Source of the DNA: an uncultured Kiloniellales bacterium
GTDB taxonomy: Bacteria > Actinomycetota > Acidimicrobiia > Spongiisociales > UBA5794
DNA length: 64,000 nucleotides
Assembly (NCBI GenBank): GCA_964195155.1
Contig: CAXMOP010000015.1
Span: 10,056 to 74,055 of the forward strand
Reading direction: 5' to 3'
A program made the translations under genes and the position numbers. The notes below the pieces were generated by a model. It was not told the DNA's origin. It ran no database searches and saw nothing but the letters and a program-made list of their open reading frames with translations. Every line of letters begins with the position of its first letter. Positions within the stretch are counted from its first letter, which is position 1. Shown one piece after another: positions 4,300-63,154 of this stretch.

Positions 4300-4323
4300 T
4301 GAGTCGCGAGTCGCGAGTCGCGA
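4300..4323 (+). repeat. heptanucleotide microsatellite (GAGTCGC) x3 plus partial unit
   Basis: Direct reading: GAGTCGCGAGTCGCGAGTCGCGAG. Lies in the divergent region between the flavin reductase and the acyl-CoA ligase. Confidence 0.9.
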
Positions 4324-4363
4324 GCCCGAGCCCGAATTGCTTTTCGTTCAGAGTGGGCGAGAC

Positions 4364-8723: not shown

Positions 8724-10352
8724 TTACAGCTCGATGATGACGGGGAAGACGACGGGGCGGCGCTTCATCGTGTTTTGCACCGCCTTGCGTGCCGAGTTGC
8801 GGACCCTGCGGTGCAGGGCGTCGTGGTCGATGGGCCGGTCGAGGGTGGAGATCCCCTGCTCGACCCTGGTTCGGATCGCCTTGTGCAGCTTGTCGGCATC
8901 CCCGGTGACCCCGTGACTGTCGATGTCGGGTCCGAAGATGATGTCTCCGGTTCGTTTGTCGACGCCCACGGTGACGAGCACCACACCGTCATCTGCCAGG
9001 TGTTGCCGATCGCGAATGACCCCGAAGTCGTCCTCGATCTCGGTCCCGTCCACATAGACATAGCCTGCAGACACGGCCTGGCGGTCGATACGCATTTTGC
9101 CGTTTTCGAGGACCACGACGTCGCCGTCCTCGCACACCTCGACGCGAGGGATTCCCAACTCCATGCCGAGGTCGGCATTGGCCGCGAGGTGCCGGTACTC
9201 GCCGTGGACCGGGATCAGCGCCTGGGGTTGCACGACGTTGTAGAAGGTCATGAGCTCGGTGGCCGCGGCATGGCCCGACACGTGGACCGGCGCGTTGCGA
9301 CCGTGGTGGACGGTGACTCCGGCCCGGGTGAGGTTGTTGATCACTCGCGATACCCGCTTCTCGTTACCGGGGATCGGGGTCGCCGAGATGATGACGCTGT
9401 CGTTGGGGTCGAGGGTCACCGAACGGTGCTCTCCCGCCGCCATCAGCGACAACGCGGCGAACGGCTCACCCTGGCTTCCTGTTGAGATCACGGCCGCCTT
9501 GTCGGGCTCGAGCTCCAGCAGCTCCTCCAGCTCGACGAGTCCCCCGGTGGGAATCGTCAGATGGCCGGATTCGACGGCGATCTCGTAGTTGCGCAGCATC
9601 GAGCGCCCGATGAAGGCAAACCGCCGACCATCTGCCACGACGGCATCGATCGCCTGTTGCACGCGGTGGAGGTGGCTGGCAAAACAAGCAATGATCACCC
9701 TGCCGGGCGCCTCTCGAACCAGGTCTTCCAGCTCGCTGCCGACGGTGCTCTCGGAAGGCACGAAGCCGGGCCGTTCGGCGTTGGTCGAATCGGCAAGCAG
9801 CAGCCGGACGCCCTGCCTGCCGAACCCGGCCAGCGTCTGCAGATCGGTGGTCCTGCCATCGATCGGCGTCGGGTCGAGCTTGAAGTCGCCGCTGTGGATC
9901 ACCAGGCCCTCCGGCGTGTCGAAGGCGATGCCGGTGGCGTCCGGAACGGAGTGAGTCACCGCAATGTGACTGAAGCGAAACGGCCCCTCCTCGACCCAGG
10001 TTCGCACCTCGACCGGCCGCAGGTCGGGCTCGACGCCCATTTCGCTCACTCTGGCCCTGGCCAGCTCGAGGGTGAGCGGGGTCCCGTATACCGGCACGTT
10101 GATCTCACGAAGTAGGTAACCGAGCGCGCCGATGTGATCCTCGTGGCCGTGGGTGAGGATCACGCACGACAGCGCCTCGGGGCGGCTCAAGATCGATGAC
10201 AGGTCGGGGAGCACGAGATCGACGCCGAGCATCTCCTCGTCGGGAAACATCAGGCCGACGTCGATCATCGCCACCCGGCCGTCGATCTCCATCGAGGCGC
10301 AGTTCCTGCCGATCTCCCCAAGGCCGCCGTGGAAGGCGATGCGGACGCTCAC
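8724..10352 (-). CDS. rnj: ribonuclease J (metallo-beta-lactamase/beta-CASP)
   Basis: 542 aa. HGHEDHIGAL motif, beta-CASP layout. Conserved dapA-rnj-ftsK neighbourhood. Confidence 0.9.
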   Translation of the reverse strand: MSVRIAFHGGLGEIGRNCASMEIDGRVAMIDVGLMFPDEEMLGVDLVLPDLSSILSRPEALSCVILTHGHEDHIGALGYLLREINVPVYGTPLTLELARARVSEMGVEPDLRPVEVRTWVEEGPFRFSHIAVTHSVPDATGIAFDTPEGLVIHSGDFKLDPTPIDGRTTDLQTLAGFGRQGVRLLLADSTNAERPGFVPSESTVGSELEDLVREAPGRVIIACFASHLHRVQQAIDAVVADGRRFAFIGRSMLRNYEIAVESGHLTIPTGGLVELEELLELEPDKAAVISTGSQGEPFAALSLMAAGEHRSVTLDPNDSVIISATPIPGNEKRVSRVINNLTRAGVTVHHGRNAPVHVSGHAAATELMTFYNVVQPQALIPVHGEYRHLAANADLGMELGIPRVEVCEDGDVVVLENGKMRIDRQAVSAGYVYVDGTEIEDDFGVIRDRQHLADDGVVLVTVGVDKRTGDIIFGPDIDSHGVTGDADKLHKAIRTRVEQGISTLDRPIDHDALHRRVRNSARKAVQNTMKRRPVVFPVIIEL

Positions 10353-11245
10353 AGGCCTTCCAGACCCACGAGAGCCTCACGCACGGTCGCCACCGTCTCC
10401 TCCGACGGCGGTACCAGCGGCAGCCGCGGCTCGCCGACGGCGTCCCAGGCCATCGACAGCCCCGCCTTGAGGGGCATCGGGCTCGGCTCGACAAACAGCG
10501 CGGTGAACAGTGGCATGAGTCCCTGATGCAGACGATCGGCCTCGTCGTCCTTGTCCGCCAGTGCCGCCTCCACCATCGCCCGGATCTGGGCTCCGGCGAG
10601 ATGGGCGGCCACCGAAACCACCCCGACGCCCCCGGCACGCACGATTTCGAGGGTCAGATCGTCCGACCCGGAGTAGACGGCGAACCCTTCCGGCAGCGCC
10701 GCGATCTGTGCGGTCGTCCAGGCGACGTCGTCGACGGCGTCCTTGACGGCAACGATGTTTGGATGGGCGGCGAGCCGCTGCAGCGTTTCGACTTCGATCA
10801 GCCGACAGGTTCGCCCGGGGATGTTGTACACCATGAGCGGCAGGTCTGTGGCGTCTGCGATCGCGGTCATGTGACGGAAGATGCCTTCCTGCGGCGGCTT
10901 CGAGTAGTACGGGGTCACCGCCATCACGGCGTGACAGCCGACCTCGGCGGCGCGCTCGGTGAGCTCGACCGACTCGCGCGTGTCGTAGGTGCCGGTGCCG
11001 GCGACCACGACCGCCCGATCACCGATGGCGTCGACCGCGGCGCGGTACAGCGCAACCTTCTCCACCGCGTTCAGGGTCGGCGACTCCCCGGTGGTGCCGC
11101 ACACGACGACGCCGTCGGAACCTTGGCCGACCAGGTGATCGGCGAGTCGGGTGAAGGTCCCGAAATCGACCGATCCGTCCTCGTGAAACGGCGTGATGAT
11201 GGCCGTGAGGACCGCGCCGAAGGGCGCTTCTGGTCGGTGCTCCAT
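10349..11245 (-). CDS. dapA: 4-hydroxy-tetrahydrodipicolinate synthase
   Basis: From MEHRPEAPFGAVLTAIITPF...GTTGESPTL...AVTPYYSKP...NIPGRT. The upstream part of ORF 10349..11725 is antisense to the thioredoxin gene. 4-nt overlap with rnj. Confidence 0.9.
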   Translation of the reverse strand: MEHRPEAPFGAVLTAIITPFHEDGSVDFGTFTRLADHLVGQGSDGVVVCGTTGESPTLNAVEKVALYRAAVDAIGDRAVVVAGTGTYDTRESVELTERAAEVGCHAVMAVTPYYSKPPQEGIFRHMTAIADATDLPLMVYNIPGRTCRLIEVETLQRLAAHPNIVAVKDAVDDVAWTTAQIAALPEGFAVYSGSDDLTLEIVRAGGVGVVSVAAHLAGAQIRAMVEAALADKDDEADRLHQGLMPLFTALFVEPSPMPLKAGLSMAWDAVGEPRLPLVPPSEETVATVREALVGLEGL

Positions 11246-11287
11246 AGCGGCGACGGTAGCAGGCAGGGTCGAAGTAACCTCGCCCCC

Positions 11288-12121
11288 ATGAGCGTTGGCA
11301 AGGATGTCGATACGGCTGCGTTTTCCCAGGATGTGCTGCAACGCAGCCGCGAACTTCCGGTCATCGTCGACTTCTGGGCGGAATGGTGCCAGCCGTGCAA
11401 GGTGCTGAGCCCCGCCCTGGAAAAAGTCACCGAGGACGGTGAAGGCGCCTTCGAGCTCGTCAAGGTCGACGTCGACGCCAACCAGGAGCTGGCACAGCAG
11501 TACGCCGTCCAGGGCATCCCCACCGTTATCGCCTTTCGCGACGGCGAAGAGGTCTCCCGATTCACCGGTGCCCTGCCCGAGGCCGCGGTCGTCGACTGGG
11601 TGGCGACGGTCATGCCGGACGATCTCGACCGGATGGTGGACGAGGCCCGCACCGCACGAATCGACGGTGACGACTCGACTGCCGAGCACCTGTACCGACA
11701 GGCCCTCGATGCGCGATCGGATCACAGCGAGGCCGGTACGAGCCTTGCGGCCATGCTCATCGACCGGGGCGAGACCGATGAAGCACTGATCGTGCTCGGC
11801 CGGCTGGTGCCCGACGCTGAGGTAGACCGGCTCCGGGCCGCGGCACGGGTCAGGGCCGGCTCCGGCCAGGACATCTCAGCGCTCAAAGCGCGTGTCGCAG
11901 CGGAGCCCGACAACGGCAGGGCTCGCCTCGAGCTGGCTCGCGCCCTCGCCGCCCAAGCCGAGTACGAGCCGGCGCTCGATCAGCTGCTGGCCGAGGTGCG
12001 GCGGAAGGGTGAGCTTTCCGACGAGGCGCGCCTCGCCATGCTCGACATCTTCGAGCTCGTCGGCGCCGAGCACCCGCTCACCACGACGTATCGCCGACAG
12101 CTGGCAAGCGCCCTCTACTAG
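11288..12121 (+). CDS. thioredoxin-domain protein with C-terminal TPR-like region (YbbN/CnoX-like)
   Basis: MSVGKDV...VIVDFWAEWCQPCK (CxxC), then a helical repeat tail. Stop TAG 12119..12121 lies in the MITE terminus. Confidence 0.85.
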   Translation: MSVGKDVDTAAFSQDVLQRSRELPVIVDFWAEWCQPCKVLSPALEKVTEDGEGAFELVKVDVDANQELAQQYAVQGIPTVIAFRDGEEVSRFTGALPEAAVVDWVATVMPDDLDRMVDEARTARIDGDDSTAEHLYRQALDARSDHSEAGTSLAAMLIDRGETDEALIVLGRLVPDAEVDRLRAAARVRAGSGQDISALKARVAAEPDNGRARLELARALAAQAEYEPALDQLLAEVRRKGELSDEARLAMLDIFELVGAEHPLTTTYRRQLASALY

Positions 12122-12232
12122 GACGGCGTTGATCAATGACGAGTGCCCTGCACCGGCGCTCACTTGTGTTGCGGTGACTCGGTTTCTCCAGTCAGCGACG
12201 GCACGCTGGAGGATTCCTGAGCACCCTCGTAG
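12118..12232 (+). mobile_element. MITE-like repeat, copy A (full length)
   Basis: cTA|GGACGGCGTTGATCAATGAC...GGTGACTCGGTTTCTCCAGTCAGCGACGGCACGCTGGAGGATTCCTGAGCACCCTCG|TAg. Aligns by eye to copies C, E and F. Confidence 0.8.
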
Positions 12233-12250
12233 GAGGATGCTGAGCAATCC
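12230..12250 (+). repeat. solo MITE terminus abutting copy A
   Basis: TAGGAGGATGCTGAGCAATCC is identical to the left terminus of copy C (29118..) and starts at the same TA that ends copy A. Confidence 0.7.
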
Positions 12251-12256
12251 GGCGCC

Positions 12257-22247: not shown

Positions 22248-22279
22248 CCTCGGTCACGGCGCCGCCCTCTGGTGATGAC

Positions 22280-22342
22280 GGTGTTGAACAATGACGAGTG
22301 CCCTGAGCACCCGCTCACTTGAGTGTTGCGGTGACGAATCGG
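22280..22342 (+). mobile_element. MITE-like repeat, copy B (left half only)
   Basis: GGTGTTGAACAATGACGAGTGCCCTGAGCACCCGCTCACTTGAGTGTTGCGGTGACGAATCGG matches the left half of copies A and F, then diverges. Confidence 0.7.
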
Positions 22343-28709: not shown

Positions 28710-29120
28710 GTGGACGATGACCGGACCCTGTCTGTTGATGAGGCTCTCTCGGAAATCGCCGCGATCACCGAACAGCTCGACGCCATGGGACCCGGAGATC
28801 CGGGTCGGAGCGGGCTCATCGCCCGCCGAGATGAACTGCGCCGATCGGCCCGGGACGCCTCCGCAGCCTCACGCCCTGAGGACACGCTCCGCTACGAGCT
28901 CGACCAGGCGCATCGCGGTCTCTCCGACCTCGAGGCCAGAGCCCTCGAACGGTCCAAGTCGGAGAGACGTACGTTCCGTTGGATCAACGACCCGAATTCC
29001 GAATCGAACCGCATCAACCAGATGCTGGAGGATCAGGATCAGGCAGCACGACTCCAGCTCGAACGGCGAATCGGAGAGATCGAGGCCCAGCTCGGAGAGT
29101 ACGGCGCGACCGGCAACTAG
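28710..29120 (+). CDS. hypothetical coiled-coil protein
   Basis: 136 aa from GTG. Charged heptad-like composition, unlike the R/S/P-rich overlapping frame. Stop TAG 29118..29120 lies in the MITE C junction. Confidence 0.55.
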   Translation: MDDDRTLSVDEALSEIAAITEQLDAMGPGDPGRSGLIARRDELRRSARDASAASRPEDTLRYELDQAHRGLSDLEARALERSKSERRTFRWINDPNSESNRINQMLEDQDQAARLQLERRIGEIEAQLGEYGATGN

Positions 29121-29229
29121 GAGGATGCTGAGCAATCCTCCGGCGGGCCGATGCGCCGGGAGCATCCGAGTCACAACACGCGAGCGAGCGGCGGCCCATG
29201 GCAATTGTCATTGTTCAGCATCCTCCTAG
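29117..29229 (-). mobile_element. MITE-like repeat, copy C (full length, inverted relative to A/E/F; best TIRs)
   Basis: C-TA|GGAGGATGCTGAGCAAT...ATTGTTCAGCATCCTCC|TA-G. The 20-nt termini including TA match 19/20. Confidence 0.85.
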
Positions 29230-30453: not shown

Positions 30454-30476
30454 TGGCCGCTGGATCGACCCAAATC

Positions 30477-30530
30477 CGCGTACCCAGGGTTCCCAGCGTC
30501 ATATAGCCGCTCCAGAACCCTGGGTACGCG
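30477..30530 (+). repeat. conserved hairpin repeat, copy 1 (16-bp perfect stem)
   Basis: CGCGTACCCAGGGTTC-CCAGCGTCATATAGCCGCTCCA-GAACCCTGGGTACGCG. Homologous to 58780..58824. Confidence 0.8.
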
Positions 30531-30536
30531 TCCTGG

Positions 30537-30581
30537 TGAGTTTGCGCCGGCACGCTGGAGGATTGTTCAACACCGTCCTAG
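30537..30581 (+). mobile_element. MITE-like repeat, copy D (right part)
   Basis: GTGAGTTTGCGCCGGCACGCTGGAGGATTGTTCAACACCGTCC|TAG. The terminus TAG is the stop of the minus-strand SDR gene. Confidence 0.7.
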
Positions 30582-31351
30582 AACGAGAGGCCGGCCGACG
30601 GCGCAGCCCCAAGCGCTCCCCCGTCGACGGGCAGGACCACCCCCGTGATCCATGCTGCGGCATCCGAGGCGAGGAAAGCAATGGCATTCGCCACGTCGGC
30701 CGGCTCGCCGATGCGCTGCAGTGGATGCGCGGCCGCAACTTGTTCCTCGACGCCATCCCAGAGCAGGGCGGAGAGCCGGGTTCGAACCACCGACGGCGCG
30801 ACCGCGTTCACCCGCACCCCGGGCGCCATCTCGAGAGCGAGTTGATAGGTGAGGTAGATGAGGGCAGCCTTTGACGTGTTGTAGGCACCGAAGGCCGCAC
30901 TGGGACGCACCCCGCCGACCGAGGCAACGTTGACGATTGCGCCGCCGTGTTCCTTCATCGACTGGTTCCACACCTCACGCGACCAGACGACCGGGCCTCG
31001 CTGGTTGACCGCCCACGTCTTGTCGAGCGCCCCGAGGTCGACGTCGGACAGCATCCCGGGGGCGGGGTTGGTGCCGGCGTTGTTGACCAGGATGTCCACC
31101 TTCCCGAACCGCTCGACCGTCTGCTCAACCGCGCTCGAGGCCGCGTCATCGTCGTCGGCGCGCGCCTCGAGCAGCAGCAGCCGATCGCTCGCGTCCAAGC
31201 GCGCCGCGGCTTCATCGAGGTTCGGCTGCTTCCGAGAGGTGATGGCCACCCCGGCGGCTCCGGATCCGAGCAGCAGTCGGGCGGTGGCCTCACCGATGCC
31301 GCGGGTTCCTCCGGTGATGAGCGCTACCGAGCCTTCAAACCTGATGTCCAT
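30578..31351 (-). CDS. SDR family oxidoreductase (FabG-like)
   Basis: 257 aa. TGGTRGIG cofactor motif, NNAG, Y-x-x-x-K (YNTSKAA). Confidence 0.85.
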   Translation of the reverse strand: MDIRFEGSVALITGGTRGIGEATARLLLGSGAAGVAITSRKQPNLDEAAARLDASDRLLLLEARADDDDAASSAVEQTVERFGKVDILVNNAGTNPAPGMLSDVDLGALDKTWAVNQRGPVVWSREVWNQSMKEHGGAIVNVASVGGVRPSAAFGAYNTSKAALIYLTYQLALEMAPGVRVNAVAPSVVRTRLSALLWDGVEEQVAAAHPLQRIGEPADVANAIAFLASDAAAWITGVVLPVDGGALGAAPSAGLSF

Positions 31352-32562: not shown

Positions 32563-33449
32563 CCTGGGATGCGCTGCGCACACCCGAAGAGCGATTCACC
32601 GCCCTCGACGGGTACCCGTACGCGCCGCACTACACCGAAATCGAAGGACTTCGCATCCACTTCCTTGATGAGGGGGAAGGCCCTCCCGTCGTGCTCTTCC
32701 ACGGCGAACCAACGTGGAGCTATCTGTACCGCAAACTGATCGGGCCGATCGTCGAGGCCGGGTATCGGGTCATCGCCCCGGACTATCCGGGCTTTGGCAA
32801 GTCGGACAAGCCGACCGATCCCGACTTCTACAGCTACGACCGGCACGTCGACTTCATGGACCGGCTCATCGAGGTACTCGATCTCACCCAGGCCACTGCG
32901 GTGGTTCACGATTGGGGTGGTCCGATCGGCCTGCGCCTGGCGACGGAGCACCCCGATCGTTTCGCTCGCATCGTGATCCTCAATACCGCACTGTTCTCGG
33001 GACGGGCCCCCGTGAGCGAAGGGTTCATGGCGTGGCGATCGTTTGTCGAAAGGACACCCGACCTGCCGGTTGGCTTCATCATGTCTCGCACCGCGGTCAC
33101 GGACTGGCCCGAGTCGGTCTTTGCCGGCTACGAAGCGCCGTTCCCCGACCAGGAGTACAAGATCGGAGCCCATCAATTCCCGCTGATCGTACCCCTCGAC
33201 TCGGAAACCAAGGGTGCCGCCGAGATGGCTGCGGTCAAAGACGCGCTCGCCCTATGGGACCGCCCGGCGGCGGTGATCTTCTCCACCGAGGACCCGGTGT
33301 TCCCCCCGCGGGTCGGCGAGCGCTTCGCCGACCGGATCCCCGGGGCCGAAGACGTCGTGCTCGTCGACGGCGCCGGTCATTTTCTACAAGAGGACCAGGG
33401 CGAGGCGGTGGCCGGCCACATCGTCGACTTCCTGCAGCGGAATCCTTAG
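32559..33449 (+). CDS. haloalkane dehalogenase-like alpha/beta hydrolase (HLD-I type)
   Basis: HGEPTWSYLYRKLI and VVHDWGGPIGL nucleophile elbow resemble DhlA-type enzymes. 4-nt overlap with usp. Stop TAG lies in the MITE E junction. Confidence 0.8.
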   Translation: MTWDALRTPEERFTALDGYPYAPHYTEIEGLRIHFLDEGEGPPVVLFHGEPTWSYLYRKLIGPIVEAGYRVIAPDYPGFGKSDKPTDPDFYSYDRHVDFMDRLIEVLDLTQATAVVHDWGGPIGLRLATEHPDRFARIVILNTALFSGRAPVSEGFMAWRSFVERTPDLPVGFIMSRTAVTDWPESVFAGYEAPFPDQEYKIGAHQFPLIVPLDSETKGAAEMAAVKDALALWDRPAAVIFSTEDPVFPPRVGERFADRIPGAEDVVLVDGAGHFLQEDQGEAVAGHIVDFLQRNP

Positions 33450-33560
33450 GAGGGTGCTGAACAATGACGAGTGCTGAGTGCCGTCGCTCGATTCAGGCGA
33501 GCGGTGATTCAGTTTCTCCCGACAGCGACGGCCCGGGAGGATCGCTCAACATCCTCCTAG
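33446..33560 (+). mobile_element. MITE-like repeat, copy E (full length)
   Basis: tTA|GGAGGGTGCTGAACAATGAC...GGGAGGATCGCTCAACATCCTCC|TAg. Both junction TAGs are stop codons of the two convergent flanking genes. Confidence 0.85.
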
Positions 33561-36529: not shown

Positions 36530-36609
36530 GGTGGGAGTTTGCCACTGAGCGGCCGATACTGAAGGACTCGCAAGACGCTACGTCGCAGGTGAACACAGAA
36601 ACTCCTGCT

Positions 36610-36637
36610 CGCGACTCGCGACTCGCGACTCGCGACT
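36610..36637 (-). repeat. heptanucleotide microsatellite (CGCGACT x4 on plus = GAGTCGC-type on minus)
   Basis: Four perfect units read directly, 15 nt upstream of the lplA-like ATG and 81 nt upstream of the lipoprotein operon start. Confidence 0.9.
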
Positions 36638-36652
36638 CGGTAGTCTGTCGGC

Positions 36653-37443: not shown

Positions 37444-37875
37444 ATGCGGATCAGCGTCATCAACGGACCAAACCTCAACCTGCTCGGCACCCGCCAGCCG
37501 GAGATCTACGGCGATTGGAGTCTCGACCGGCTCGACAAGGCCTGCCGGGATTGGGCGGCCGAGGTCGGCGCCACCGTCGACACCTACCAGTCCAATCACG
37601 AGGGCGACCTGATCGACCGGCTCCACGAGGCTCGGCGGAGCGCCGAAGGCGTCGTCATCAATCCCGGGGCACTCACCCACTACTCGTACGCCATTCGCGA
37701 CGCCATCGTTGCGATCGAGCTTCCCACCGTGGAAGTCCACCTTTCCAACATCAAGGAACGAGAAGCGTGGCGCCGTGACTCGGTCGTCGAAGCAGTGTGC
37801 GTGGCGACCTTCGCCGGTCGCGGGGTCGACGGATACCGGGACGCCATCTTGCACCTCGCCGCCGCCGCCGAATAG
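37444..37875 (+). CDS. aroQ: type II 3-dehydroquinate dehydratase
   Basis: MRISVINGPNLNLLGTRQPEIYG...QSNHEG...INPGALTHYS. Stop TAG 37873..37875 lies in the MITE F terminus. Confidence 0.92.
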   Translation: MRISVINGPNLNLLGTRQPEIYGDWSLDRLDKACRDWAAEVGATVDTYQSNHEGDLIDRLHEARRSAEGVVINPGALTHYSYAIRDAIVAIELPTVEVHLSNIKEREAWRRDSVVEAVCVATFAGRGVDGYRDAILHLAAAAE

Positions 37876-37987
37876 AACGGTGTTGAACAATGACGCTGCC
37901 CTGAGCCGCCGCTCGCTTGAGTGTTGCGGTGACTCGGTTTCTCCAGTCAGCGCCGGCACGCTGGAGGATTGCTCAACACCCTTCTAG
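37872..37987 (+). mobile_element. MITE-like repeat, copy F (full length)
   Basis: aTA|GAACGGTGTTGAACAATGAC...GGTGACTCGGTTTCTCCAGTCAGCGCCGGCACGCTGGAGGATTGCTCAACACCCTTC|TAg. Confidence 0.85.
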
Positions 37988-39281: not shown

Positions 39282-40403
39282 ATGAGCGATATCGACTCGA
39301 CCTCCCTACCCGATCACCTCCTCCCGAGCGACGGGCGGTTTGGCTCCGGGCCCGCGTTGATCCGCGGCGATGCCGTAGCGAGGCTCGCCGACGTGGCCGA
39401 TCACTACCTCGGGACCAGCCACCGGCGAGAAGGGGTCAAACGCGTGGTTCGCGACATCAGGATGGGAGTCGCATCCCTCTACGGGCTCCCGGACGGCCAC
39501 GAGGTCGCGCTCGGCGTCGGCGGCGCCACCATGTTCTGGGAAGTCGCCGCCCATTCGCTCATCGAGCACAAGAGCCAGCACCTGTCCATCGGCGAGTTCT
39601 CCGCGAAGTTCGCCGCCGTGGTCGCCGGTATGAGTCACCTCGAGAAGCCGACGATCATTACCGCTCCCGCCGGCTCCGCCGCCGCTCCGATGTCGGACCC
39701 CGAGATCGACGCCTTTGCCCTGATCCACAACGAGACCTCGACCGGAGTGATAGCACCGCTGTCTCGCCCGCAGCCCGGTGCACTCGTTCTAGTAGACGGA
39801 ACCTCGGCAGCGGGCGCGGTGCCGGTCGAGCCCGCCGTCTTCGACGTGTACTACTTCTCGCCGCAGAAGGCGTTCGGCTCGGAGGGCGGTCTCTGGCTGG
39901 CACTTTGCTCACCGGATGCGGCGAGCCGGGCCGAGCGGCTCGCCACCGAGCGCACCATCTCGCCGATGTCTTCGCTCCAGGTTGCCCTGGAAAACTCCAG
40001 ACAGGACCAGACCTACAACACGCCGGCGCTCGCCACCCTCTTTCTGCTCGCCGACCAGATCTCCTGGATCGACGCCAACGGCGGGCTGGCGTGGGCGGAG
40101 GCGCGCAGTCGCGCCTCGGCTTCGATCGTCTACCAATGGGCGGAGAGCTCCCCGTACGCGACACCGTTCGTGACGGAGCCCGATCTCCGCAGCCCGACCG
40201 TGGTGACGGTGGACCTCGATGAGGCGGTCTCTGCGGAGGCGGTCGCCGCGGTGCTGCGCGCCAATGGGATCGTTGACGTGCTCGGGTATCGAAAGATCGG
40301 ACACAACCAGCTCCGGATCGCCACCTTTCCCGGCATCGAGCCTTCCGACGTCGAGCGCCTGGTGGCGGCAATCGAATTCGTCGTGGCGCGGGAGTCGAGC
40401 TAG
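39282..40403 (+). CDS. serC: phosphoserine aminotransferase (actinobacterial type)
   Basis: From MSDIDSTSLPDHLLPSDGRFGSGPA...HNETSTGV...YYFSPQKAFGSEGG. The upstream part of ORF 39111.. is antisense to the aminotransferase. Confidence 0.8.
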   Translation: MSDIDSTSLPDHLLPSDGRFGSGPALIRGDAVARLADVADHYLGTSHRREGVKRVVRDIRMGVASLYGLPDGHEVALGVGGATMFWEVAAHSLIEHKSQHLSIGEFSAKFAAVVAGMSHLEKPTIITAPAGSAAAPMSDPEIDAFALIHNETSTGVIAPLSRPQPGALVLVDGTSAAGAVPVEPAVFDVYYFSPQKAFGSEGGLWLALCSPDAASRAERLATERTISPMSSLQVALENSRQDQTYNTPALATLFLLADQISWIDANGGLAWAEARSRASASIVYQWAESSPYATPFVTEPDLRSPTVVTVDLDEAVSAEAVAAVLRANGIVDVLGYRKIGHNQLRIATFPGIEPSDVERLVAAIEFVVARESS

Positions 40404-41920: not shown

Positions 41921-42397
41921 GTGCACGAGCTCCCCGAGGCCACCGAGCGGGTGGTGCGCGCCGCAGAGGGTCTCGGCCTGACCATTCAGCCAATCGTGTT
42001 TCCCGAGGGAACCAAGACCTCGGCAGAAGCAGCCGCCGCGGTCGGGGCCGACCTGGCCCAGATCGCCAAGTCGCTGGTGTTCATCGTCGATACCGATCCG
42101 GTGCTGGTCTTGATGTCGGGAGATCACCGGGTGGACACGGAGCGGCTGGCGGCCACCCTGGATGCAGACGATGCCCGTCGCGCAACCCTCGAGGAGTGCC
42201 GGGATGCCACCGGCTATGCCGCCGGCGGCACACCCGCCTTTGGCCACCCCCGCTCGATGGTCGTCGTGGCCGACCGTTCACTCATGCGCAATGAGGATGT
42301 CTGGTCGGCCGCCGGCACCCCGACAACGGTTTACCCGATCAAGCTCAGCGATCTCGTGCGGGCTGCTGGTGCACGATGGGTCGATGTTGCGGAATGA
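41921..42397 (+). CDS. YbaK/EbsC family aminoacyl-tRNA deacylase domain protein
   Basis: 158 aa. ...IAKSLVF...VLVLMSGDHRVD...GYAAGGTPAFGHP pattern. GTG start directly follows the amidase stop. Confidence 0.7.
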   Translation: MHELPEATERVVRAAEGLGLTIQPIVFPEGTKTSAEAAAAVGADLAQIAKSLVFIVDTDPVLVLMSGDHRVDTERLAATLDADDARRATLEECRDATGYAAGGTPAFGHPRSMVVVADRSLMRNEDVWSAAGTPTTVYPIKLSDLVRAAGARWVDVAE

Positions 42398-42400
42398 GAT

Positions 42401-42420
42401 GCGAGTCGCGAGTCGCGAGA
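42401..42420 (+). repeat. heptanucleotide microsatellite (GCGAGTC x2 plus GCGAGA)
   Basis: Begins 3 nt after the ybaK-like stop codon, in the sense orientation. Confidence 0.85.
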
Positions 42421-44016: not shown

Positions 44017-44034
44017 GGCCGGCGCTAGCCGATC

Positions 44035-49400: not shown

Positions 49401-49883
49401 ACTGATGGCGGTATATCCGACGGGGTCGGGGGCGAGCAAAACGAGATGATCGGTGGGTGGCAGGTCGATGGGCTTGGTCCCATGCATCCGCCGGATCCGC
49501 CCCCGGCGGGACCGCGCTTCGTCCCCCCCGCCGCCAGGCGGGGGGGACGCGGGTTTGCTCGGCAAACCCGCAGGGGGGGCTTCCTTGTCCCCGCCAGGCG
49601 GGGGGGACGCGGGTTTGCTCGGCAAACCCGCAGGGGGGGCTTCCTCGCGACTCGCGACTCGCGACTCGCGACTCATCCCCACCTCCGTCCCGTACACGAT
49701 GGGCATGGCGAAGATCTGCGCCGCCTGATGCACCTTGACCACACCGCGGAACCCGTCATGATCGGTGACGCCGAATGCGGTGTAACCGAGCTCGGCAGCA
49801 CGCTCGACGAGGCGGATCGGGTGAGATGCCCCATCGAGGAAGCTGAAGTTGGTATGGGCGTGGAGCTCCGCGTACCGTGCCAC
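46491..49883 (-). CDS. dnaE2: error-prone DNA polymerase DnaE2 (pol III alpha family, ImuC)
   Basis: GTG start. PHP N-terminus YAELHAHTNFSFLDGAS, PDIDIDF, GIHSGG, ends ...SRDFR like mycobacterial DnaE2 (recalled). LexA box 14 nt upstream. Carries an in-frame repeat insertion. Confidence 0.9.
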   Translation of the reverse strand: MARYAELHAHTNFSFLDGASHPIRLVERAAELGYTAFGVTDHDGFRGVVKVHQAAQIFAMPIVYGTEVGMSRESRVASREEAPPAGLPSKPASPPPGGDKEAPPAGLPSKPASPPPGGGGDEARSRRGRIRRMHGTKPIDLPPTDHLVLLAPDPVGYTAISRFITSGQFRGKKDAPEYRYEDLAEASRRGNLYALTGCRKGAVPRAAQAGDLAGAMAAASRLGEVFPGRLFIELTHHGLPDDDARNDLLAEVAARLGLPTVATNNVHYADRSDAVLGDVLAAVGGRRDLEVADGFRSASDLAYLRSADEMAERFARYPGAVERAAELGEALAFDLDLLTPQLPDFPMPGAFNDENEYLRHLVFEGAGDVYPGDRNGIDPKAEARLEHELSVIFELGFSGFFLVAWDIVNYARSRDIYCQVRGSGADSAVCRCLGLTRVDPIRLHLPFERFLSEERGRPPDIDIDFEAERREEVIQYCYRRYGRERAAMVSNVITYRARSVLQDVGKAFGLTQAQVNGLTKYLDSRSPQAIPEVVDLPAGLTTELIYDVCQRLDGFPRHLGIHSGGMVVARRPLWEVVPLEWGRMEDRTVLQWDKDDCATMGIVKFDLLALGALNAMHMSVDTIADVHGIDIDLATIPQEPIVYDMLTRADTVGVFQVESRAQMATLPKMKPRTFYDLAIEVALIRPGPIQGHSVHPFLRRRNGLDPVRYPHPLTEPILKKTLGIPVFQEQLMELARICAGFTPGQSDRLRQAMTHKRSSEAMDRLRSEVYDGMEANGVTGAAADEIWEKLQGFASFGFPESHSVSFAYIVYATSWLKYHWPAEFFCGLLNAQPMGFYSPNSLVQDAQHHGVVVLPPDVNASAFDCTVEPFDADPDDTSAYLDGLWRRGRGPVDDPLRPAVALRIGLRYVRNLGDAEITRIEAARMTAGAFATPEDLAQRTGLPLDAYEGLAASGALAPIGLGRRQGVWSAGTLAEQGPDRLALDHGGARPPLPNIAPAEEMQADLWSTGISTTHPVVFVREMLDDMGCVLIADVLSSPRHNTRIKAGGIITHRQRPSTAKGVRFINLEDETGLLNVVILPQVWEAHYEVARKAVGVVIEGILEHEDGVTNLVARRFTEWPLEGIRSRDFR
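49531..49673 (-). repeat. repeat module inside dnaE2: two 60-bp direct repeats (55 nt identical) plus (CGCGACT)x4
   Basis: 49531..49585 equals 49591..49645. Each unit contains the hairpin GCGGGTTTG-CTCGG-CAAACCCGC. Heptamers at 49646..49673. Translated as SRESRVASRE-(EAPPAGLPSKPASPPPGGxx)x2. Confidence 0.9.
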
Positions 49884-50535: not shown

Positions 50536-50620
50536 AGCAGTCGTCAGTCCTCAGCCTTCAGTCCTCAGCCAGAAGCGCCACGAGCTACCTGCCAACTGAA
50601 GACTGTTGACTGACGACTTC
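50534..50620. repeat. long imperfect hairpin built from inverted heptamer-periodic arrays (NNCAGTC ... GACTGNN)
   Basis: Left arm GAAGCAGTCGTCAGTCCTCAGCCTTCAGT versus reverse complement of right arm GAAGTCGTCAGTCAACAGTCTTCAGT. Fills the gap between two convergent stop codons. Confidence 0.75.
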
Positions 50621-56545: not shown

Positions 56546-56579
56546 GCCGCAAGGCTAGATACCCCAGGGGTGCATCTTG

Positions 56580-57236
56580 TCAAGCGGCTTTGGTTTCGAG
56601 GGGGGTTTGGCGGTGTGCCCAGGCGGTGTCTTCGTTGTAGGTGGCTCCGTGTCGGAGGCAGCCGTGGAGGATGCCGACGAGTCGGTTGCCGAGGGCGCGG
56701 AGGGCTTGGTGGTGGAGGTCTCCTTTGGTTCTGCGCTGGTCGTAGAAGGCTCGGCATCCGGGGCTTTGGGTGAGGGAGCAGAACGCCCATTGGTCGATGG
56801 CGGCGGCGAGGCGCCGGTTGCGGATGTGGCGGGCCAACACCTTGACTGCTTCGGCTAGGTCGCTGTCACCAGCGAGGGGTCGATGGTTATGCCGGTCGGT
56901 ACGGACCAGATCTGCCAACACTTTGGCGTCACCGGCATCAGACTTAGCACCCGCCAGATTGTGCCGGTCCCGGTAACGCGACACCGCCACCGGATTGATC
57001 CCATACACCTGATACCCCGCCGCCACCAACGGTTCGACCCACAACCCCAGGTCGGTCTCGATCCCGACCACCACCTCACCCGGTTCATCAACAACCCCCG
57101 CCACCAGATCGTGGAACCCCCGAATCCCTTCCAGGCCTTCAGGGAGCCGCCGACTCGTCAACCGGCTCCCCGCCTCATCCATCACATGGACCGTTCTTGC
57201 GTAGCCAGGAGCGATATATGGCCGTCTGCTACGCAA
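56580..57236 (-). mobile_element. IS110-family transposase remnant (N-terminally truncated, large internal in-frame deletion)
   Basis: VVVGIETDLGLW...YGINPVAVSRYRDRH..GAKSDAGDAKVLADLVRTDRHNH (DEDD domain) is joined directly to the C-terminal tail ...FYDQRRTKGDLHHQALRALGNRLVGILHGCL. 218 aa versus roughly 350-400 expected. Confidence 0.75.
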
Positions 57237-57244
57237 GAACGGTC
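57189..57244. repeat. perfect 17-bp inverted repeat (GACCGTTCTTGCGTAGC / GCTACGCAAGAACGGTC) spanning the 5' truncation point of the IS110 remnant
   Basis: Arms 57189..57205 and 57228..57244, 22-nt spacer; read directly. Confidence 0.85.
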
Positions 57245-57340
57245 AGTGCCCCGTCCATTCCGGCGGTCGCTTGCGTGGTGCGGTGACTCGGTTTCTCCAG
57301 TCAGCGCCGTCACGCTGGAGGACTGCTCAACACCCTCCTG
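57245..57340 (+). mobile_element. MITE-like repeat, copy G (degenerate left end)
   Basis: ...GCTTGCGTGGTGCGGTGACTCGGTTTCTCCAGTCAGCGCCGTCACGCTGGAGGACTGCTCAACACCCTCC. Left TIR missing, right junction is TGG rather than TAG. Confidence 0.7.
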
Positions 57341-57356
57341 GGGAGCTGGCGGCCAC

Positions 57357-58737: not shown

Positions 58738-58779
58738 ATAATGTCACCCTGTCAAGAGGCAATTCCGACCACAGCCGCA

Positions 58780-58824
58780 AACCCAGGCAACGCAGCGTCA
58801 TATAGGCGCTCCCCAGCCTGGGTT
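58780..58824 (+). repeat. conserved hairpin repeat, copy 2
   Basis: AACCCAGGC-AACGCAGCGTCATATAGGCGCTCCCCA-GCCTGGGTT. Same core CAGCGTCATATAG(C/G)CGCTCC as 30477..30530. Confidence 0.75.
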
Positions 58825-58844
58825 CGCGCCGGGGGGCGTTATCA

Positions 58845-58958
58845 TGGTGGGGACCACCCCGGGGAGCTCGTATATCGAGCTGAGAGGGCGGCCTTGCAGC
58901 GAGAAAGCATGGCCACCGACCCGCGGAACCTGATCTGGGTAATCCCAGCGGAGGAAGC
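58845..58958 (+). promoter_or_regulatory. TPP (THI-box) riboswitch
   Basis: GGGGAGC...GCTGAGAG...ACCCGCGGAACCTGATCTGGGTAATCCCAGCGGAGGAAG matches the conserved CUGAGA and ACCUGAUCUGG.UAAU.CCAGCG elements. The 3' GGAGGAAG doubles as the Shine-Dalgarno sequence of thiN. Confidence 0.85.
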
Positions 58959-58960
58959 GC

Positions 58961-59608
58961 GTGGACGATCTACGAGCCATCGTCTTGACGGACGGAGATC
59001 CCGTCGCGCCTCCGATCCCGCTGCCCAGCGATGCGATGGTGATCGCCGCCGACGGTGGATTGCGCCTCTCCTCCATCCTCGGACTCCGAGTCGATGTCGT
59101 CGTTGGTGACATGGATTCGGTGTCGCCGGCGGATCTGGCTGCGGCCGAGCAGGCCGGCGCCCGCATCGAGCGACACCCTATCGACAAGGACGCCACCGAT
59201 CTCGAGCTGGCCCTCGACGCCGCCATCACCGGTGGCGCGATCGAAATCACCGTCGTCGGCGGCGCCGGTGGACGCCTCGATCACCTGCTCGCCAATGCCC
59301 AACTGCTGGCCGGAGACCGGTACGCCGCCATCCAGCTGCGCTGGTGGACCGGAGCCGAGATCGTCGTGGTCTGCGACCACATGCGACCGGCCGTGATCAA
59401 GGGAACCCCAGGCGAGCTCGTGTCGCTGGTCCCGGTCGGCGGAAGCGCCGGTGGCGTCGTCACCACCGGACTTCGGTGGGGACTCGAGGGCGAAGATCTC
59501 GGCTTTGGTTCAACGCGGGGCGTCAGCAACGAGCTGAGCGACGACCGGGCAACCGTTTCACTCACAGAGGGAAGGCTTCTCGTGATTCAGGAACGAGCAA
59601 CGCCGTGA
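58961..59608 (+). CDS. thiN: thiamine diphosphokinase
   Basis: GTG start. VVGDMDSVS and KDATDLELAL motifs, C-terminal B1-binding domain. 215 aa. Confidence 0.8.
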   Translation: MDDLRAIVLTDGDPVAPPIPLPSDAMVIAADGGLRLSSILGLRVDVVVGDMDSVSPADLAAAEQAGARIERHPIDKDATDLELALDAAITGGAIEITVVGGAGGRLDHLLANAQLLAGDRYAAIQLRWWTGAEIVVVCDHMRPAVIKGTPGELVSLVPVGGSAGGVVTTGLRWGLEGEDLGFGSTRGVSNELSDDRATVSLTEGRLLVIQERATP

Positions 59609-62231: not shown

Positions 62232-63142
62232 TGCTCGACGTCAGCGCAGTATCGATTCGATTCGGTGAAGTCACCGCCCTCGACGGCGTGAACCTGATTG
62301 TCGAGGACCGATCCGTAGTCTCGCTGATGGGTCCTTCGGGATCAGGCAAGTCCACGCTATTGCGAGTCATCTCAGGGCTCGAGCACCCCGATTCAGGCGA
62401 CGTGCGCTGGGACGGCTCCTCGGTACTCGACATCCCGACACACCGGCGCGAGTTCGGCATGATGTTCCAGGACTACGCCCTGTTTCCTCACCGCACGGTC
62501 GCCCAGAACGTCTCGTTCGGGTTGCGAATGCAGCGGCTTCCCGCCGACGAAATTGCCATTCGTAGAGAAGGGGCTCTCGATCTCGTCGGCCTCACCGACT
62601 ACGGACCTCGCTCGGTCGCAACCCTCTCGGGCGGAGAACAGCAGCGGGTTGCCCTGGCCAGGACACTGGCCCCAGAGCCGCGGCTCGTTCTGCTCGACGA
62701 GCCGCTCGGCGCCCTCGATCGAGCCTTGCGGGAGCGCCTCGTTGCGGACATGCGCGACATCTTTGAGTCGATCGGTGTGACCGCCCTCTACGTGACCCAC
62801 GACCGTGACGAGGCCTTCGCCATCGCCGACAAGGTCGCCGTCATCGACGGTGGCCGGATCATTGCGGAGGGAACGCCCGAGGAACTCTGGCACCGGTCCT
62901 CGACCGACCGCATCGGCGAGCTAATCGGATTGAACAACCGGCTGAAGGGCGCAGTCGAGGTGTCGACCAACGAGCCGACCAACGGCACCGTGCGTCGGTC
63001 GAGCTTTCGAAGCGGTCGCTACCAAGTCGAAGTTGATCTGGACGCCGGCTCGAGTGTCGTTGCAGTCTCGGATCAGCGCCTGGAAGCGGGAACCCGCGTC
63101 GGGATCACGTCGGAGCGGTCACCACTGAAGACTGAAGACTGA
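62231..63142 (+). CDS. thiQ: ABC transporter ATP-binding protein (ThiQ/FbpC-like with C-terminal extension)
   Basis: GPSGSGKST, LSGGEQQRVALAR, LLDEP. The stop lies inside the heptamer array. Confidence 0.8.
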   Translation: MLDVSAVSIRFGEVTALDGVNLIVEDRSVVSLMGPSGSGKSTLLRVISGLEHPDSGDVRWDGSSVLDIPTHRREFGMMFQDYALFPHRTVAQNVSFGLRMQRLPADEIAIRREGALDLVGLTDYGPRSVATLSGGEQQRVALARTLAPEPRLVLLDEPLGALDRALRERLVADMRDIFESIGVTALYVTHDRDEAFAIADKVAVIDGGRIIAEGTPEELWHRSSTDRIGELIGLNNRLKGAVEVSTNEPTNGTVRRSSFRSGRYQVEVDLDAGSSVVAVSDQRLEAGTRVGITSERSPLKTED

Positions 63143-63154
63143 AGACTGGCGACT
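63124..63154 (+). repeat. heptanucleotide microsatellite (ACTGAAG x3, then ACTGGCG ACT)
   Basis: Read directly. Contains the thiQ TGA (63140..63142). Confidence 0.9.

Follow-up and report, generated by a model that had tools for sequence, protein, structure and literature searches.

Palindromic elements at TA dinucleotides and TAG stop codons in uncultured Acidimicrobiia, a probable family of miniature inverted-repeat transposable elements

Copies of the element in the window

The DNA analysed here is a stretch of 64,000 nt (positions 10,056 to 74,055 of contig CAXMOP010000015.1, hereafter the window) from an uncultured acidimicrobiial bacterium, in which a short non-coding element recurs, often flush against the stop codon of a gene. 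The element is an imperfect palindrome of 104-116 nt, with terminal inverted repeats (TIRs) of about 20 nt (GGAGGGTGCTGAACAAT...ATTGCTCAGCACCCTCC) and a hairpin domain between them; the consensus of the aligned window copies reads (C)TAGGAGGGTGYTGAACAATGACGAGTGCC...GGTGACTCGGTTTCTCCAGTCAGCG.CGGCACGCTGGAGGATTGCTCAACACCCTCCTAG. Taken as a whole, the observations below are very probably best explained by a family of miniature transposable elements with inverted repeats (MITEs), that is, non-autonomous cut-and-paste DNA transposons, of a narrow clade of uncultured (marine) Acidimicrobiia. A first-pass annotation of the window had listed seven copies or fragments sharing TIRs of about 20 nt, and reading of the sequence, TIR patterns and nhmmer all place these seven at, or within a few bases of, the positions it gave; as a full list it falls short by one piece, since the window holds four full copies and four fragments. 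The left-TIR pattern GGAGGGTGYTGAACAATGAC, allowing up to three mismatches, has five matches in the window against 0.01 expected from shuffles, and the right-end pattern has five against 0.00. An nhmmer profile with the four full copies as input finds all seven listed places (E 5.6e-34 to 1.3e-06) and gives a weak match (E 0.066) to the eighth piece, a lone TIR (GGAGGATGCTGAGCAATCC). With TIR motifs this far above chance and a TIR helix of 20 pairs, the MITE family is borne out.

Copy A is full length (12119-12231, plus strand, flanking TAs included), and its left TA together with the terminal G is the TAG stop (12119-21) of a thioredoxin-tetratricopeptide repeat gene (10196-12121). The lone TIR (12232-12251, minus strand) adjoins copy A, with a common TA at 12230-31, and ends 6 nt before the dapB stop (CTA, 12257-59); it is the leftover of a second copy inserted at the right TA junction of copy A. 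Fragment B, a left half (22277-22335, plus strand), lies between convergent BtpA and ABATE/CGNR genes without contact with a stop codon. Copy C is full length and inverted (29118-29228, minus strand), its junction TA plus G forming the TAG stop (29118-20) of ORF136 (28710-29120), an open reading frame (ORF) that has no Pfam match and is called as a conserved gene of 134-136 aa in syntenic relatives. In fragment D (30541-30580, plus strand) the right end alone is kept, its terminal C plus TA giving the stop (CTA, 30578-80) of a minus-strand short-chain dehydrogenase/reductase (SDR) gene (30578-31351), and a hairpin repeat of unrelated sequence stands where the left part would be. Both junctions of the full-length copy E (33447-33559, plus strand) are stops, the TAG at 33447-49 belonging to a hydrolase gene and the CTA at 33557-59 to a minus-strand ORF of 174 aa, while the left junction of the full-length copy F (37873-37986, plus strand) is the TAG stop of aroQ (37873-75). 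Copy G (57245-57341, plus strand) is without its left ~24 nt, i.e. the TIR, has a right end mutated to CCTGG, and adjoins a hairpin and an IS110 remnant. The ORF list and Pfam bear out all six stop codons that had been read as TA joined to the element's terminal G, and the placement of five of the seven listed pieces between convergent genes holds as well; the gene named dehalogenase in that account does end at the TAG of copy E, and Pfam makes it an alpha/beta hydrolase. The outer base on the gene side is C at four of the six stop junctions, the exceptions being T (copy E) and A (copy F).

A second small hairpin repeat, with loop GCGTCATATAG(C/G)CGCTCC and stem CGC..ACCCAGG, occurs at 30474-30535 and 58776-58835, and a doubtful third copy (57189-57245) lies between copy G and the IS110 remnant. 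The first of these stands in place of the left part of fragment D and the second lies just upstream of a thiamine pyrophosphate (TPP) riboswitch; the repeat was not found in related contigs.

Empty and filled sites in relatives

The DUF4032 gene, situated between copies C and D, has homologues on syntenic contigs, with a protein identity of 90% (L017), 80% (L013) and 76% (L015), and a further relative at 83% (L143) was found via the aminotransferase. At site C the contig L017 is empty and reads GCACC-TA-GGCGCGACAC, and the filled site in the window reads GCAAC-TA-[GGAGG...CCTCC]-TA-GGCGCGACAC. From this exact pair it follows that the insertion duplicated TA within CTAG and that the TAG was already the stop of ORF136, which confirms the flank C-TA-element-TA-G with TA duplication first proposed for this copy. 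Site D carries a full-length copy in L017, the right end alone in the window, and no element in L013 (CAC-CTAG-GGC, with the SDR stop inside CTAG) or in L015. The last contig is fully syntenic over 20 kb and has zero copies; its gaps at the four sites measure 27, 5, 7 and -4 nt, and at sites C, E and F the stop is part of a CTAG. At site F of L015 (18072-18075) the convergent aroQ and aminotransferase genes overlap by 4 nt, so that one CTAG is both stops, and at site E of L143 (9388-9391) the hydrolase gene and its convergent neighbour also overlap by 4 nt and share a CTAG (AGCTAGCC). The comparison of empty orthologous sites, a check proposed with the first-pass annotation, has ancestral stops that were already TAG within CTAG in L017, L013, L015 and L143, an outcome that favours the first-pass reading. 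Every sampled strain of the species carries copies E and F, no presence/absence difference being found at either site; copy F is seen in all six same-species loci shown, one of which (L006) is cut inside the copy. The element is mobile, as its TA duplication and its presence/absence polymorphism among relatives demonstrate.

Copies across metagenomes and the target site

A metagenome scan with the 19-nt TIR, in which TAG was required at one end, matched at least 117 stretches. The profile search then covered about 1.06 Mb, made up of the window, the strain and relative loci and the contigs fetched via the TIR pattern, and gave at least 168 matches, of which at least 140 are full length; once duplicates with the same flanks are removed, at least 128 copies are left. 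Two size classes can be told apart, of 104-106 nt and 114-116 nt, the window copies being in the longer one. The percentages given below for metagenome copies are among the matches listed.

As CTAG is palindromic, a CTAG site cannot separate a 2-bp from a 4-bp duplication, and the informative copies are those with other junctions. In the 92 listed copies with TA at both ends, the inner base is near-constant (G on the left, C on the right), and the outer base is C in 74% on the left, G in 86% on the right, and both in 61%. With the inner bases fixed and the outer ones variable, G and C are part of the element and the duplication is TA alone. A 4-bp CTAG or YTAR duplication of the IS5/IS701 type is ruled out by unequal 4-mers in 35 of the 36 listed copies with a non-CTAG junction. 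The target is thus NTAN with CTAG preferred; both the TA duplication and the CTAG preference are seen directly in the copies, and tabulation of the flanks upholds the predicted TA/CTAG bias together with constant TIR ends. Where elements abut they hold one TA in common, as at 12230-31, at several MITE-MITE junctions in the metagenomes and at many junctions with a second element; a single common TA is what would result if every insertion left a fresh CTAG target at both of its ends.

The second element is also non-autonomous, about 332-347 nt long, with ends TA-GTGTCC(C/T)G(A/T)(G/A)TC (e.g. L038 7167-7513, L040 1931-2277, L077 934-1265 and L114 4881-5212). About two thirds of the 46 ends found adjoin a MITE end directly, nearly all the others are CTAG-flanked, and two read TGG; the element is absent from the window.

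When one genome from each prokaryotic species was scanned with a strict two-anchor pattern, the MITE turned up in two places only. One is 'Acidimicrobiia bacterium BMS9Abin07', with five copies, and the other is a contig (L008, CAXMOL010000007.1) binned in an alphaproteobacterial Kiloniellaceae metagenome-assembled genome (MAG), with a typical 115-nt copy. The latter is probably a binning error, since this contig and the window-like MAG stem from one project. Proteins identical to those of aroQ and the hydrolase gene of the window occur in metagenome assemblies and one MAG, GCA_964194755.1, only.

Association with stop codons

With G...C ends and a TA duplication, each junction reads N-TA-G inward on its own strand. 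A TAG or TAA stop whose leading TA is the target is rebuilt as TAG by the insertion, and this rebuilding serves the gene on either side, including two convergent genes with one shared CTAG; it follows from the same junction geometry that TGA stops can never be targets. At the sites examined no residues are added to the proteins. The window (G+C 65.7%) contains 15 CTAGs against 203 expected from base composition, a depletion of about 13-fold, and six of the 15 are MITE junctions. In a filtered set of about 52 window genes the stops are TGA in 31, TAG in 17 and TAA in 4. The filter, a stricter one, missed aroQ and the 174-aa ORF; with the latter added by hand there are five CTAG stops, four of which carry the element, and the lone free one (40400) lies in a 2-nt gap inside an operon. 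Among the nine non-MITE CTAGs, five were read by eye, without systematic classification: that at 40400 is the gene stop just mentioned, those at 44025 and 56555 are intergenic, and those at 2963 and 61326 seem to fall within coding sequence of the opposite strand. These counts fit the earlier suggestion that CTAG stops are the main tolerable CTAG targets.

Other TA palindromes are also depleted in the window, TTAA occurring once against 55 expected and TTAG/CTAA 5 and 9 times against about 105; GATC (673) and TCGA (812) are three- to four-fold over-represented.

Across the metagenomes at least one end is the stop of a long ORF in about 38% of the 128 listed copies, a share that is 74% in the 115-nt class and only 27% among the 105-nt copies. 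Where a listed copy forms a stop at one end, this is the left end in 18 cases and the right end in 24, which gives no orientation bias. We conclude that the stop association is real and strong in the window genome and is not a universal property of the family, so that the earlier claim of a stop-codon link stands for this genome and is overstated as a general rule. The association is best explained by target preference plus purifying selection removing disruptive insertions, not by recognition of genes. In a tightly packed genome of 66% G+C, with CTAG depleted about 13-fold and intergenic spacers a few bases long, TAG stops would make up a large share of the sites where insertion both occurs and is tolerated, selection presumably acting as the filter. 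An adaptive reading would go further, with the TA target and the G...C termini as a selected design that uses TAG/TAA stops, including a shared CTAG, as safe harbours where neither protein changes, the hairpin serving the host as an insulator or 3'-end structure between the genes thus separated, and the MITE forming, with an IS110 element that lands on its end and the second CTAG-specific element that stacks on these junctions, a small layered ecosystem on the rarest tetranucleotide of the genome; we regard this as speculative and rather unlikely.

Copy G and the IS110 element

The sole transposase-like gene found in the window is that of a decayed IS110-family element (about 56546-57236, minus strand) next to copy G, in line with the first-pass statement that no matching transposase is present. 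It keeps an N-terminal DEDD domain (ORF 56580-57236, minus strand), the C-terminal end of the transposase and the right end (...GGGGTATCTA-G), and its left end is lost. Compared with an intact relative in L035, the remnant is minus about 590 nt internally, the left end and the first ~12 codons. The ends of the element read ATGGGGGTCCAC...GGGGTGTCTA, and intact relatives, with a transposase of 406 aa, occur at several loci. At three independent sites the intact IS110 starts exactly after the right-hand TA of a MITE (...CCCTCCTA-ATGGGGGTCC...GTCTA-G): in L035 (3111-4603) it is next to an intact MITE, and in L146 and L147 (from 656) it is next to old, diverged, full-length ones. An IS110 clade of 71% identity has the flank ...AGGCTA- instead. 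The MITE terminus therefore appears to be the specific target of this IS110 clade. Copy G is without precisely the TIR that would have faced IS110, which indicates truncation by a deletion across the IS110-MITE junction; the copy had been described as degenerate, and it is present as such, with the refinement that its left TIR was lost at the hairpin/IS110 junction.

The Rfam family Ms_AS-4 (RF02464, 80-85 bits) matches antisense within the IS110 transposase genes (L035 4177-4258, L146 1722-1803 and L152 1068-1149, minus strand); the corresponding stretch is deleted in the window remnant.

Predicted hairpin and possible host function

For three full copies the predicted fold is a long hairpin far beyond what shuffles give (z -3.3 to -5.3), and for copy A, the fourth, it is not (z -0.94). 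RNAalifold on a mixed alignment of 125 copies gave no consensus structure, because the two size classes differ in the centre; an explicit count was made instead for the TIR helix and the central helix on the same alignment. Over both helices 87.7% of cells are paired, and over the 20 pairs of the TIR helix 91.8%. Double-change cells number 167, against 33-64 with the partner slid by 1-3 columns. The central helix has compensatory change at 13 of 17 pairs (e.g. CG 85/GC 30 and UA 82/CG 34), and rare variants with an unrelated centre still close by a covarying GGCC-type stem. The predicted hairpin is thus kept by compensatory changes, as judged from the alignment; the counts are of sequences, not events, with much of the signal between sub-lineages, so they indicate that the propagating (master) copies keep the hairpin and do not imply constraint on each copy.

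It could be supposed that copies have been co-opted as RNA or DNA hairpins, acting as terminators, as insulators between convergent genes or as stabilisers of mRNA 3' ends, and that such a function keeps them at the 3' ends of genes. The strong predicted folds of three of the four full copies, the compensatory changes in the stem within and between subfamilies, the position of five of the seven window copies between convergent genes and the presence of copies E and F in all sampled strains would all suit this idea. However, no T/U tract follows the hairpin, and intrinsic terminators in 28-39 kb are not above shuffles (7 sites against 4.4 +/- 2.2), with one weak terminator-like site inside copy E and none at an element end, so that the terminator-like role first suggested for the hairpins finds no backing. 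The weak fold of copy A also speaks against co-option. Among loci of the species, copy F has 3 variable sites out of 115, compared with 9 out of 2390 for the genes on either side, which looks like little constraint on the individual copy; element-free relatives cope with gaps of 5-27 nt or with overlapping genes, and the covariation may mirror the transposition needs of master copies. On balance we hold co-option to be improbable.

At gathering thresholds Rfam gives only the TPP riboswitch in the window, away from any MITE, and an E-value search of 28.9-38.1 kb gave nothing on the copies; a mir-769 match at 30466-30539 was dismissed as a chance hairpin match. A small peptide starting from the Shine-Dalgarno-like AGGAGG plus ATG in the left TIR was likewise rejected, since its frame is unkept between and within classes; among the copies listed, the terminal TAG closes this ORF in 13 of the 31 of the long class and in 8 of the 97 of the short class.

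Transposase and family assignment

We propose that a trans-acting transposase, which most probably belongs to the IS630/Tc1-mariner type, would insert the element at TA and duplicate the TA. A 2-bp TA duplication is not unique to IS630. For IS630 itself, Table 1 of PMC2577343, citing Tenzen & Ohtsubo 1991, gives a 2-bp duplication at CTAG. The first-pass annotation had taken the junctions as an established IS630/Tc1-mariner signature, of which the TA duplication and the CTAG preference hold and the family membership is no more than probable, no cognate transposase having been found. We infer that IS630-type mobilisation is the best-supported assignment, and a probable one.

Several results weigh against this account of the element. 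Neither the window nor about 1 Mb of related contigs nor plasmids yielded an autonomous element carrying these TIRs. Wherever two TIRs lie 0.5-3 kb apart in the ~1 Mb, they belong to two MITEs with ordinary genes between them, orphan TIRs whose interior is not that of the MITE hold no transposase-like ORFs (they are probably truncated copies or chance 19-mers, some in low-GC contigs), clustering of the ORFs in the ~1 Mb revealed no multicopy transposase ORF, and viral contigs gave 0 matches and plasmids chance-level matches only. As to the target, the TAG demanded at one end by the scan pattern inflates the TA frequency there, the outer bases and the opposite end being unbiased; among the listed copies about 25% of left and 13% of right ends have no intact TA, which is more decay than inside the TIR and could also mean that ungapped end-calling is off in some copies. 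One empty/filled pair alone is base-exact, the remaining pairs being between more diverged relatives. On the side of the stop codons, the window counts are small (five CTAG stops), and the metagenome stop calls come from a heuristic that can admit shadow ORFs.

The MITE might derive from another DDE family that makes 2-bp TA duplications, one candidate being the IS427/ISL2-type groups of the IS5 family. In its favour, the TIR GGAGGGTGCTGAACAAT can be aligned with the IS5/ISKpn26 TIR GGAAGGTGCGAACAAG, taken from an annotated copy in E. coli, so that 14 of 17 positions agree if one gap is allowed, and no IS630-type transposase was found near any copy. The resemblance is short, however, and was noticed after the fact, an IS5-family transposase was likewise not found, and the 4-bp YTAR duplication of the IS5 type is rejected by the unequal 4-mers in 35 of 36 copies; TA duplication with CTAG preference is, by contrast, documented for IS630 in the table cited above (PMC2577343), and we judge an origin outside IS630 to be unlikely. 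An origin as a REPIN-like doublet mobilised by a RAYT (HUH/Y1) transposase is highly improbable. The long hairpin and the intergenic, 3'-end location recall REPINs, as do the size and a G/CTAG-like head tetranucleotide. Yet the precise TA duplication at the empty/filled pair does not fit, the arms are true TIRs and not palindromic REP units, half-elements are rare, and a partial scan of the ORFs turned up no RAYT-like gene. 

Relation to known elements

RUP of Streptococcus pneumoniae and Nezha of cyanobacteria are MITEs mobilised by transposases of the IS630/ISY100 (bacterial Tc1-mariner) type. The Correia element (NEMIS/CREE) of Neisseria is a hairpin MITE of about 100-150 bp that has a TA duplication, lies near gene ends and is not known to have an autonomous partner; promoters, IHF sites and RNase III targets arise from its ends. 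The target of IS5, YTAR, contains TA. In anatomy and behaviour the element described here is a probable IS630-type MITE like RUP, Nezha or Correia, and no new mechanism is required. With IS630/ISY100 and their MITEs it has in common the 2-bp TA duplication, in IS630 with a preference for TA in CTAG according to Table 1 of PMC2577343, and the form of non-coding hairpin derivatives of about 100 nt in many intergenic copies; the passage on this type in PMC2170065 has the transposase bind the TIRs and need TA alone. It differs in that no cognate transposase was found here and the TIR is unmatched to any known IS630 member, in its host, an uncultured Acidimicrobiia clade, and in its G...C termini that rebuild TAG on both sides, of which we found no description as a regular feature of RUP or Nezha. 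Like the ends of Correia, those of the present element supply sequence signals to neighbouring genes, but the by-product here is a regenerated stop codon, and there is no sequence similarity. Enterobacterial RU-1/ERIC-type sequences and Coxiella MITEs alter gene 3' ends in the cases set out in PMC2759123 and PMC5896051; these too are small palindromic mobile repeats at or inside gene ends that give frame and stop signals, but in those cases they are occasional intragenic insertions adding peptide tails, whereas here the junction is exactly the regenerated stop. The start of the TIR of IS5 (ISKpn26-like, E. coli), GGAAGGTGCGAACAAG, resembles GGAGGGTGCTGAACAAT; the 4-bp duplication of IS5, however, is not what our copies show.

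What is new is the sequence family, a MITE in this host clade, and the unusually clean regeneration of stops, including the splitting of overlapping convergent stops. Within the set of papers searched, none links Acidimicrobiia with MITEs. The family illustrates, to the exact base, that a transposon which duplicates TA and has G...C ends can lie flush against genes with the coding sequence unaltered, and its copies form a ready-made data set for IS630-type target choice in a genome starved of CTAG. For annotation, intergenic repeats that start at a TAG stop should not be taken as part of the gene, and such repeats break metagenome assemblies. The target-site relationship between IS110 and the MITE end is of interest for mobile-element biology.

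Other features of the window

Perfect heptamer arrays (GAGTCGC/CTCGCGA, three to five units) occur in both orientations at 4301-4324, 36608-36639, 42389-42419 and 49644-49674, two of them directly upstream of start codons (4337 and 36653), and further arrays lie at 50538-50568 and 63124-63148. A perfect 60-nt tandem duplication (1.9 copies, 49531-49645), with G7 runs and an internal hairpin CGCGGGTTTGCTCGGCAAACCCGC, runs into one of these arrays. The TPP riboswitch (RF00059, 61.4 bits) lies at 58850-58973 on the plus strand.

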